DNA from: Pseudogymnoascus verrucosus
Taxonomy: Eukaryota
DNA: 64,000 nucleotides
Assembly (NCBI GenBank): GCA_001662655.1
Contig: KV460250.1
Direction: 5' to 3' (one strand)
In this document: positions 23,199 to 51,189 of the stretch, one piece after another
Numbering within the stretch: the stretch's first letter is position 1
How the letters are laid out: every line of letters begins with the position of its first letter
Made by a program: the position numbers and the translations under genes
Notes under the pieces: model-generated
Told to the model about the DNA's origin: nothing
The model's database searches: none
Seen by the model: only the letters and a program-made list of their open reading frames with translations

Positions 23199-23317
23199 AC
23201 ATACGACCATAGACTCAAGAGAATTGGGCATCCCGTCCGCTCTGCCATACACAAGCTTGAGATCGGTGGATTAGTAGTTGGGTGGGTGACCACCAGCGAA
23301 TACCCACTGTTGTATGT
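23199..23317 (+). rRNA. 5S rRNA (dispersed copy)
   Basis: ACATACGACCATAG...GGGCATCCCGTCCGCTCTGCC...TAGTAGTTGGGTGGGTGACCACCAGCGAATACCCACTGTTGTATGT; terminal helix pairs; followed by T-run Pol III terminators. Confidence 0.96.
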
Positions 23318-23487
23318 TTTTGCCATTTTTTGCCATTTTTTGCTCTTTTGGGCTGGATATGAGGCTGTGGAGAAAGCGTCGGTTTGGCCGCCTAGCCATA
23401 CTGACCGAGAGTCTAAGTAACTAGCATATCGATCGAAAAGGTAGCCGGGCCAAGCCTGAGCTCTCACCGAGACAATATCTATTTTCG

Positions 23488-35046: not shown

Positions 35047-35150
35047 AAAAATTGGTAGCTTCTCTTTGATTGAGCGTGTCATCCTTAGTGCAGGGGCCAT
35101 GCTAATCTTCTCTGTATCGTTTCAAAGTTGACCAAAATACCCGTAAAGGC
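35047..35150 (-). ncRNA. U6: U6 spliceosomal snRNA
   Basis: Minus strand reads ...GAAACGATACAGAGAAGATTAGCATGGCCCCTGCACTAAGGATGACACGC... (ACAGAGA box, AGC triad, ISL) and ends in a T run. Confidence 0.95.
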
Positions 35151-35320
35151 AAATTGTAGTGAGTTATTTAGGCAGATAGGGTTATAATGAGTCCCTGGGC
35201 TATGCACCACCATAAACAACATACATTCCTGCGAAACACTTAATAACACTAAGTAAATGTGCACCTCATCTTTCCCAAGTGTATCAATACAATAATCTTT
35301 TCGACCAAGGCTATCTCGAT

Positions 35321-50213: not shown

Positions 50214-50478
50214 GTTGAAGTGACTACATGCGCTATTGTTGGTAGGTAGTGAAGACTCGTGAGGACTTCAGTGATCGATGAGTGAGGCACTGTTCTATTG
50301 AATAGGGAAGGCAAGGCTGACGACAATTACATGGCAACGACGGGTTCTGCCGCCCTCACCGCCCCGATAAGTGCTGGGTTCAACTGGATGGAGCACTAGC
50401 GAAAACTCGCTTGCAACCGGGCGCCAGTTTGTCATACAAATATTGAAATTGTCTGGCTAATTTAAACAAACAAGACAA

Positions 50479-50653
50479 ACTCCAGTGACGCGTTAGTACC
50501 CCAACTGCCCACTGCCTTCAGCTTACTGAATGCTAACGTTTGTTTCCACAGAGTGGTTAGCGTGTCGTTCTTATATTCTGCGGCGCAAGCTGCCTAATAT
50601 GATCTTTCTTCGTAGAGATGCGAAAGTCGTGGGTTCGACACCCACCTGGAGTA
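50479..50653 (+). tRNA. tRNA-Ile(UAU) in three exons (50479-50491, 50552-50575, 50618-50653) with a spliceosomal-type D-arm intron and a canonical 37/38 intron
   Basis: Joined exons give acceptor stem ACTCCAG/CTGGAGT, D stem ACGC/GCGT, D loop AGTGGTTA, anticodon TAT at 50572-50574, T arm GTGGG-TTCGACA-CCCAC and discriminator A. Poly-T terminator at 50673-50689. Confidence 0.9.
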
Positions 50654-51189
50654 TATCTTCAGATTACACCTATTTTTTTTTTTTTTTTTGCCTTTTATAT
50701 CTCACTCCACTATCTTTTAATACAACCTGTTACTAAATGTTAGTACACAGGAACGACATACCTGTGAGGTTCATGGCTTGACTTTTGTGTCCGCATATAT
50801 CGCGTATCCTCGTCGCTCTTTGCCATGCCAACGTAGATATGACAAAAAATGCTGAAAGAGAGGGAAAGCGACGATTTTACAGAAACTTCTCCCCCCCCCA
50901 AGACACGCAGCTCCACCTAGCTAGTAGGGATGTTATGCAAGCTCCACCGTAATTTTGATGCGGTGTGCTCCAGCTTTTAGCCTCCTTCCAGCGGCTGATG
51001 CGCTTGTTACTCTCTCAGTATGCCCATGCAGTATCACGATATTTCGTATCACGACAGGCAAAGTGAACTTCACAGTTTTTTACTTTCACAAGTCTCTGGT
51101 ATTCCCTTGCTATCCAATTCCGTTCCAGAAGTAGGGTATCTACAGAAACCGCCCACCAAACACCACGCGCCTTCCCCCCCATTCCGTGC

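Follow-up and report, generated by a model that had tools for sequence, protein, structure and literature searches.

The analysed window is a stretch of 64,000 nucleotides (nt) from Pseudogymnoascus verrucosus (contig KV460250.1 of assembly GCA_001662655.1). On its plus strand, at positions 50479-50653, lies a transfer RNA (tRNA) gene for tRNA-Ile(UAU) with two introns: one of spliceosomal type in the D arm, between tRNA nt 13 and 14 (13/14), and one at the canonical tRNA intron site, between nt 37 and 38 (37/38). The coding sequence of 73 nt is distributed over three exons of 13, 24, and 36 nt. Exon 1 (50479-50491, tRNA nt 1-13) consists of the 5' strand of the acceptor stem, ACTCCAG (50479-50485), followed at 50486-50491 by TG and ACGC, which correspond to U8, G9, and the 5' strand of the D stem; 10 unique related loci, described below, have this exon unchanged. 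After intron 1 (50492-50551, 60 nt), exon 2 (50552-50575, nt 14-37) reads AGTGGTTA GCGT G TCGTT CTTATA and comprises the D loop (AGTGGTTA), the 3' strand of the D stem, the 5' strand of the anticodon stem, and the loop nucleotides CUUAUA with the anticodon UAU. Intron 2 (50576-50617, 42 nt) is followed by exon 3 (50618-50653, nt 38-73), in which we read the B box GGTTCGACACC (50632-50642), the acceptor 3' strand CTGGAGT (50646-50652), complementary to ACTCCAG, and the discriminator A73 at 50653.

The gene is invisible to standard tools in its native form. ARAGORN calls no tRNA at the locus, with intron mode on or off, and gives zero calls over the whole 64-kb window; the Rfam tRNA model has no match in the native stretch, either at the gathering score or at E ≤ 10. 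Deleting the 42-nt insert alone leaves the locus without a call, deleting the 60-nt insert alone produces a tRNA with an anticodon-loop intron and a miscalled anticodon, and deleting both produces a perfect 73-nt tRNA-Ile(tat) cloverleaf. U8, A14, the GG of the D loop, U33, the T-loop TTCGA, and A73 are all present in the spliced molecule. The miscall comes from the intron option of the program (-i), which places the anticodon-loop intron ambiguously and reports Arg, Trp, Gln, or other anticodons; canonical introns were therefore removed by alignment, and the tRNA was then called without -i.

A first-pass annotation, made from the letters of the window, had proposed this gene structure, and it stands as written. 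Its coordinates and the ACTCCAG/CTGGAGT pairing are exact, the excision of GT..AG joins C13 to A14 and rebuilds the D arm, and the 42-nt insert does sit at 37/38 without a GT donor. The expectation that standard scanners would miss the gene agrees with the silence of ARAGORN and Rfam on the native sequence.

Intron 1 has the signals of a messenger RNA (mRNA) intron. Its 5' splice site, GTTAGT (50492-50497), fits the extended consensus GTNNGT, its branch motif, GCTAAC (50532-50537), has the A at 50536, 15 nt from the 3' end, and its 3' splice site is CAG (50549-50551). The GT-AG placement is the sole one that yields this mature sequence. As a control for chance, segments of the form GT/GC..AG with a branch-like motif were removed one at a time on both strands of the window, and two of 13,044 gave a junction-spanning tRNA call upon removal. 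Both were at this locus, namely 50492-50551 and its 3'-end variant 50492-50553, and this candidate-intron removal scan of the two strands detected no other split tRNA in the window.

For comparison introns, we used those that bridge open reading frames (ORFs) in place of a regular-expression count; the strict version of that count gave 6 mRNA-like introns in the window versus 0-5 in shuffles (mean about 2.4), which is not clearly higher. Of the eight ORF-bridging putative mRNA introns, seven measure 52-60 nt and one 106 nt; their donors are of GTRMGT type, the branch motif is YTRAY, and they end in YAG. The 60-nt insert matches them in size and signals, as the first-pass annotation had already noted, and is thus typical of the introns of this genome.

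Metagenome contigs scanned for the exact 24-base exon 2 returned 37 loci, here given L numbers, which were parsed by spliced alignment, candidate-intron removal, and ARAGORN. The canonical 37/38 intron is present in 37/37 loci. Twelve genes are conventional and have this intron only (L007, L008, L010, L012, L014, L019, L022, L025, L026, L029, L033, and L036), while 25/37 carry additional, non-canonical introns, up to four per gene. The D arm is interrupted at the window's position, 13/14, in 19/37 loci and at 15/16 in four (L004, L016, L018, and L028). Seven further positions bring the number of insertion sites to nine: 3/4 (L006), 46/47 (L002, L005, L030, L031, L035, and L037), 53/54 and 61/62 (both in L024 and L032), 55/56 (L002 and L005), 63/64 (L002, L005, L035, L016, and L028), and 67/68 (L001). 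In L002:534-843 (+) and L005:380-691 (-), four spliceosomal-type introns (13/14, 46/47, 55/56, and 63/64) accompany the canonical one, and the exons measure 13, 24, 9, 9, 8, and 10 nt.

Automatic parsing gave 33 unique non-canonical introns, 47-69 nt in length. Their equivalent placements include GT-AG in 30/33, GC-AG with a GCAAGT donor in 2/33, and GG-AG in 1/33, the last shared by the identical loci L011 and L020. All but one have YTRAY as the branch motif, 9-17 nt from the 3' end (32 of 33), and the remaining intron has CTAAA; the introns of L006 and L030 show the same splice signals. Conversely, no canonical 37/38 intron starts with GT. All 22 well-scoring spliced alignments yield a 73-nt tRNA-Ile(tat), including that of L029, a gene that is really uninterrupted and whose acceptor is unlike the window's. 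In L006, excision of the 69-nt GTAAGT...CTAG intron turns two acceptor mismatches into seven perfect pairs.

The loci in which the D-arm intron is shifted by two bases are informative about what sets its boundary. With the slash marking the splice sites, L016 and L028 read ACGCAG/GTATGC...CAG/TGG, L004 has a GCAAGT donor, and the intron of L018 is also at 15/16. As the shifted introns still obey GT/GC-AG, the boundary follows the splice-site rule and not the tRNA position. The alignment of related loci proposed at the outset gave conserved GT, branch, and AG signals in D-arm introns whose remaining sequence has diverged.

Two pairs of interrupted loci show peculiarities of their own. In L024:292-558 (+) and L032:427-692 (-), the 53/54 intron ends in TTTAG directly before TTCGACAC, so that the DNA, with the final G of the intron, again contains a B-box-like AGTTCGACAC. 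In L016:531-755 (+) and L028:470-695 (-), the 63/64 intron begins with a sequence (GTACGTCTA...) similar to that of the exon after it (...CAGGTCTA), and because of this similarity ARAGORN can also build a slightly imperfect tRNA with the intron kept. The likeness could point to an origin by local duplication.

The exons are conserved to a degree that the rest of the locus is not. In 10 unique loci they are identical to the window's at 73/73 positions, although identity in the same loci falls to 57-67% in the canonical intron, 40-58% in the D-arm intron, and about 40% in the flanks. L017 has 100% identical exons with 97% identity in the D-arm intron and 87% upstream, and L021 has 100% identical exons with 74% and 58%, respectively. 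The acceptor 5' strand of L011 has T in place of A at nt 6, and its 3' strand has changed to match. Judged from these alignments, the comparison shows strict purifying selection on the exons while both introns drift.

Exon identity amid diverged introns and flanks means that this is not a decaying pseudogene. The corresponding alternative, a dead tRNA gene with a chance insertion beside a separate intact Ile-UAU gene that does the work, would agree with the lack of spliced RNA among the contigs described below and with the GG donor of L011/L020. Nevertheless, we consider it very improbable. Besides the 73/73 identity in loci that have only 40-58% in common with the window in introns and flanks, the acceptor stem of L011 is kept by compensatory changes, the intron position is retained in 19/37 loci together with its splice signals, terminators are found in 23/23 genes, and the gene is represented in contigs from RNA libraries. 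Moreover, no uninterrupted copy of this mature sequence type occurs among the 37 loci, where the exon-2 pattern could have caught one. All 22 captured loci with the acceptor 5' strand ACTCCAG or ACTCCTG carry at least one spliceosomal-type intron, which suggests, on sequence grounds, that the interrupted gene is the only Ile-UAU gene in those genomes. Even the gene of L011/L020 looks maintained despite its GG donor, because its changes in the acceptor (A6U/U67A) and in an intron box that pairs with it (U to A; the P1 box, see below) match each other.

A different alternative leaves the gene functional and changes the enzyme: the 60-nt insert would be an ectopic bulge-helix-bulge intron cut by the tRNA splicing endonuclease, as in genes of archaea, of the red-alga nucleus, and of nucleomorphs. 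Multiple non-canonical introns in D and T arms are known there, according to the accessible parts of two papers (PMC3728597, PMC4090602), and the 53/54 intron of L024 and L032 scores 10 and 9 of 10 in our bulge-helix-bulge test. This test is a crude score with a maximum of 10, and it weakly separates canonical introns from random sites. On this scale the window D-arm intron scores 6 and random sites average 6.25 (SD 1.21), whereas the means are 6.70 for the 33 non-canonical introns and 7.47 for 17 canonical ones. By this weak scoring test, no bulge-helix-bulge motif is present at the window D-arm intron, which is located at 13/14 and not at 37/38. Furthermore, 32/33 introns are GT-AG or GC-AG, and all 33 have a branch motif and the length of host mRNA introns; the enzyme needs none of these features. 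The boundary also moves by two bases in L004 and L016/L028 in a way that retains GT/GC-AG. The missing bulge-helix-bulge sign, combined with the splice signals, makes endonuclease removal of the D-arm intron unlikely, and we give this explanation almost no credence.

Intron 2, in contrast, is an ordinary tRNA intron, and the novelty is its co-occurrence with a spliceosomal-type one. Its TATGA (50598-50602) is complementary to tRNA nt 33-37 and could form the anticodon-intron helix, the outer helix pairs at 3/3 positions in the bulge-helix-bulge test, and the relatives also have TATG in their canonical introns. In yeast, the canonical intron of tRNA-Ile(UAU) is the recognition element of Pus1 for pseudouridine at positions 34 and 36, and nuclear modification is followed by cytoplasmic tRNA splicing, as described in the accessible part of a review (PMC4090602).

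An alignment of 14 unique 13/14 introns reveals structure within intron 1. One box, CACTG, is invariant and reads CGTCACTG in most lineages; its complement is found at exon nt 5-9, and up to nt 12, and the two give a helix that we call P1. A hairpin, P2, ends immediately before the branch motif. In the window, the P1 box is at 50510-50514 (+) and pairs with 50483-50487, and the P2 hairpin, TTCAG/CTGAA, spans 50517-50530 (+). P1 and P2 pairing is found in 89.9% of the alignment cells versus 23-48% when the partners are slid by 1-3 columns. Three P1/P2 pairs are changed on both sides, one of them being the exon A6U with the intron U-to-A change of L011, and the covariation score is 0.161 versus 0.072 in shuffles, with 0/500 shuffles as high. 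Single-sequence minimum-energy folds of exon 1 plus intron contain P1 and P2 in 6/8 sequences, with modest z-scores (-1.1 to -3.3). In the window lineage the best fold is a different one, with the 5' splice site paired to the branch region (CGUUAG/CUAACG), and CAGUG/CACUG and UUCAG/CUGAA are possible pairings there too. From the covariation and the alignment, P1/P2 has probably been kept by selection, to present or hold a 5' exon that is very short. A search by eye for A-box- or B-box-like promoter sequence in the D-arm intron returned a partial B-box likeness in one lineage, which is not conserved.

Which polymerase transcribes the gene can be approached from its flanks. A TATA-like element, TAATTTAAAC, lies at 50448-50457 (+), 22-31 nt upstream of the tRNA 5' end, and is a possible TFIIIB/TBP site; the relatives have AT-rich or TATA-like stretches at similar distances upstream. 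Downstream, a run of 17 T (50673-50689, +) begins 19 nt after the discriminator and resembles a terminator of RNA polymerase III (Pol III). A T-run of at least five is located 8-32 nt past the discriminator in 23/23 fully parsed interrupted genes, window included, and within the introns the longest T-run is at most four in 31/33. L002 and L005, whose B box is interrupted after GGTT, nevertheless have a run of T10-T11 downstream of the gene.

Directly before the tRNA 5' end, nine loci (L001, L002, L005, L023, L024, L032, L034, L035, and L037) share a conserved ...TTCAAACATGCCAA, and the 50 nt upstream of the window gene include a related A/C-rich stretch, TAAACAAACAAGACAA. It is possible that these stretches are upstream promoter or start-site elements.

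Public sequencing runs provided the evidence at the RNA level. A total of 24 rows from 13 studies contain a third to a half of the sampled words, and this partial coverage fits the gene alone being near-identical in several organisms. Four runs were aligned: two metatranscriptomes (X1 and X14), one run taken to be RNA by an automatic guess (X2), and one that is probably DNA (X19). Each of the first three gave one contig, of 190 nt from 50480 in X1, 199 nt from 50474 in X14, and 198 nt from 50476 in X2. All three reach 50663 plus 6-10 masked letters, that is, the start of the T-run (about 50669-50673), and retain both introns with 0-1 differences from the window, plus a single-base insertion in X14. 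They delimit an unspliced RNA of about 195-200 nt (50474-50673, +), the probable primary transcript, and a molecule of this size fits a Pol III primary transcript. No contig covering the gene flanks was seen in X1, X14, or X2, whereas the X19 contig continues upstream to 50359 with five differences and a 9-base insertion, all upstream and none in the gene. Within the gene, the RNA-library contigs depart from the window at two points only: C>A at 50522 (X14 and X2), in the loop of the P2 hairpin, and an additional A after 50499 (X14), where the intron is unpaired between its 5' splice site and the P1 box.

Considering these data together, we regard it as likely that this nuclear gene is functional and that the spliceosome removes its D-arm intron, splicing itself being what we infer, and as reasonably probable that Pol III transcribes it. 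Several observations weigh against this reading. The C13-A14 spliced junction was not seen, as 3/3 RNA-library contigs, which are assembled contigs only, keep both introns. The RNA status of X2 was guessed, and DNA can occur in RNA libraries. The donor of L011:530-697 (+) and its identical copy L020 is GGAAGT, beginning with neither GT nor GC. The search pattern was this exact exon 2, and an uninterrupted Ile-UAU gene with a different one may exist in this fungus. With respect to Pol III, the window A box (nt 8-19) is split by the 60-nt intron and is not contiguous, the B box is split in L002/L005 and abutted by introns in L024/L032, and five-T runs occur in 2/33 introns (L035 at position 46 and L016 at position 15). 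Pol III transcripts are not known to be spliced in animal cells. The missing junction is not evidence of absence, because rare forms are lost from contigs and mature tRNAs from ordinary libraries, but neither do the contigs speak positively for splicing.

The split or abutted A and B boxes are awkward for a TFIIIC-driven Pol III promoter, and they are an argument for a variant of the same reading in which the spliceosome removes the intron from a Pol II precursor, either a short non-coding RNA or a longer transcript, and RNase P and RNase Z release the tRNA after splicing, much as small RNAs encoded in introns or host genes are released. The five-T runs in two introns point in the same direction, and spliceosomal splicing is normally coupled to Pol II. 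However, the T-runs of at least five lie 8-32 nt past the discriminator in 23/23 interrupted genes and are missing from 31/33 introns, the window B box is intact, and each RNA contig is a discrete molecule with its start at 50474-50480 and its end at the T-run, not a piece of a longer transcript. In addition, the U6 gene of fission yeast shows that a Pol III transcript can be spliced, according to the part available of the paper describing it (PMC5855946). On balance, we take a Pol II precursor seriously as an alternative but find it unlikely. As a side observation, the five-T run in the D-arm intron of L016 equals the terminator of that gene in length.

The RNA contigs also bear on the possibility that the inserts are never removed and that the RNA of about 195 nt is itself a stable, tRNA-like non-coding product. 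The three RNA-library contigs contain only the unspliced form, and the structure of the intron is conserved, as this idea would have it. What is conserved, though, is exactly those parts that rebuild a canonical cloverleaf, and the inserts vary by lineage in number (1-4), position (nine sites), length, and sequence, which one would not expect if an RNA of 195 nt were the functional product. Ordinary RNA sequencing, moreover, favours long precursors over 73-nt modified tRNAs. A stable product that keeps its inserts is therefore hardly plausible to us.

Returning to a spliced precursor, maturation could proceed as follows. Pol III, which we favour over Pol II given the TATA-like element, the intact B box, and the run of 17 T, would make a precursor of about 195 nt. 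In the nucleus, the spliceosome would excise intron 1, with U1 at ACGC/GUUAGU, U2 at GCUAAC (branch A at 50536), and CAG as the 3' site. The short 5' exon would be held or presented by the exon-intron helix (nt 5-9 with CACTG, extending to nt 12 in relatives) and by the hairpin before the branch. The joining of C13 to A14 would then let the D arm and the tRNA body fold. RNase P, RNase Z, and the splicing endonuclease and ligase would recognise the mature domain only once intron 1 is gone, and endonuclease and ligase would then excise the canonical 37/38 intron.

If so, tRNA-Ile(UAU) probably needs the spliceosome in this fungus. With less assurance, we lean towards extending this to a whole clade of filamentous ascomycetes, in which the only AUA-decoding tRNA would come from a Pol III transcript obliged to pass through the spliceosome first, P1/P2 would let the spliceosome handle a 13-nt uncapped 5' exon, and tRNA genes would be an unrecognised class of spliceosome substrate, missed by tRNA finders. 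A regulatory link between AUA decoding and splicing is speculation.

A full-text literature search, whose coverage leaves most subscription journals outside, found no paper describing spliceosomal introns in tRNA genes, and the accessible parts of the genome papers checked are silent on them. A 2026 review of non-canonical splicing presents tRNA splicing, in the portion available, as independent of the spliceosome. In the accessible text of a 2014 review of tRNA introns, the string 'spliceosom' has 0 occurrences and the eukaryotic non-canonical introns listed are all of the endonuclease type (PMC4090602). The intron is of the ordinary spliceosomal kind; what is unprecedented is its host, a tRNA gene.

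The closest parallel is in another small RNA gene. Introns of mRNA type in fungal genes for the U6 small nuclear RNA (snRNA) were reportedly described by Tani and Ohshima in 1989 and 1991. As in those genes, we find a short intron with mRNA signals in a small, structured RNA gene of Pol III type, with displaced promoter elements and a transcript that would be a spliceosome substrate. The host here is a tRNA, unlike U6; relatives have up to four introns over nine positions, and an endonuclease-type intron is present in the same transcript. The usual story for the origin of U6 introns is reverse splicing at the catalytic centre, and it is inapplicable to a tRNA. In Schizosaccharomyces pombe, the U6 intron is of mRNA type in a Pol III-transcribed gene and has the B block inside it, according to the accessible part of the source (PMC5855946).

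Other tRNA introns resemble those described here in some respects. Archaea, Cyanidioschyzon merolae, and nucleomorphs have tRNA introns in the D arm, variable region, T arm, and acceptor stem, with several per gene, and finders miss them, as reported in the available portions of two papers (PMC3728597, PMC4090602). Those introns are of bulge-helix-bulge type and cut by the endonuclease, whereas the ones here are GT/GC-AG, with a branch motif and host mRNA-intron length, and the window D-arm intron has no bulge-helix-bulge motif. Yeast pre-tRNA-Ile(UAU) is the counterpart of intron 2, which is likewise at 37/38, has no splice-site signals, and can pair with the anticodon, the part played by Pus1 in yeast being that given in the accessible text of the review (PMC4090602). 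The difference lies in the co-occurrence here with a spliceosomal-type intron, which would have to be removed first. Self-splicing group I introns, for which bacterial and plastid tRNA genes are reportedly hosts (Reinhold-Hurek and Shub, 1992), are also a non-endonuclease intron class in tRNA genes. They differ in being hundreds of bases long, located in the anticodon loop, and self-splicing, without GT-AG ends or branch signals.

If our reading is true, an essential low-copy tRNA has an mRNA-type intron that is conserved and under selection, and this would break the rule, given in textbooks and current reviews, that protein enzymes remove nuclear tRNA introns independently of the spliceosome. 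It would also be a natural case of two splicing systems acting in order on one short transcript, and it would mean that the spliceosome works on uncapped RNAs of Pol III type with micro-exons of 8-13 nt. Introns of this kind would explain 'missing' tRNA genes in fungal annotations, as ARAGORN and Rfam both miss this gene, and nine insertion sites in one 73-nt gene offer material on spliceosomal intron gain.

The surroundings of the gene agree with a fungal origin. One flank is the 5' end of a minus-strand gene (ORFs to about 50267), and the other is the 3' end of a minus-strand Nop14-like gene (about 51190), whose protein has ascomycete clusters as its nearest; the plus-strand tRNA gene lies in the intergenic gap and is therefore outside any other gene's intron or exon. 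The window is fungal and, according to Rfam, holds a dispersed 5S ribosomal RNA (rRNA) gene and an uninterrupted U6 gene. The 5S rRNA gene is at 23199-23318 (+), with 74.2 bits, and 5S rRNA genes are usually dispersed in filamentous ascomycetes. The U6 snRNA gene, at 35047-35152 (-), has a full-length match (1-105 of 105, 86.7 bits) and no intron; the same genome has an mRNA-type intron in a tRNA gene and none in U6.

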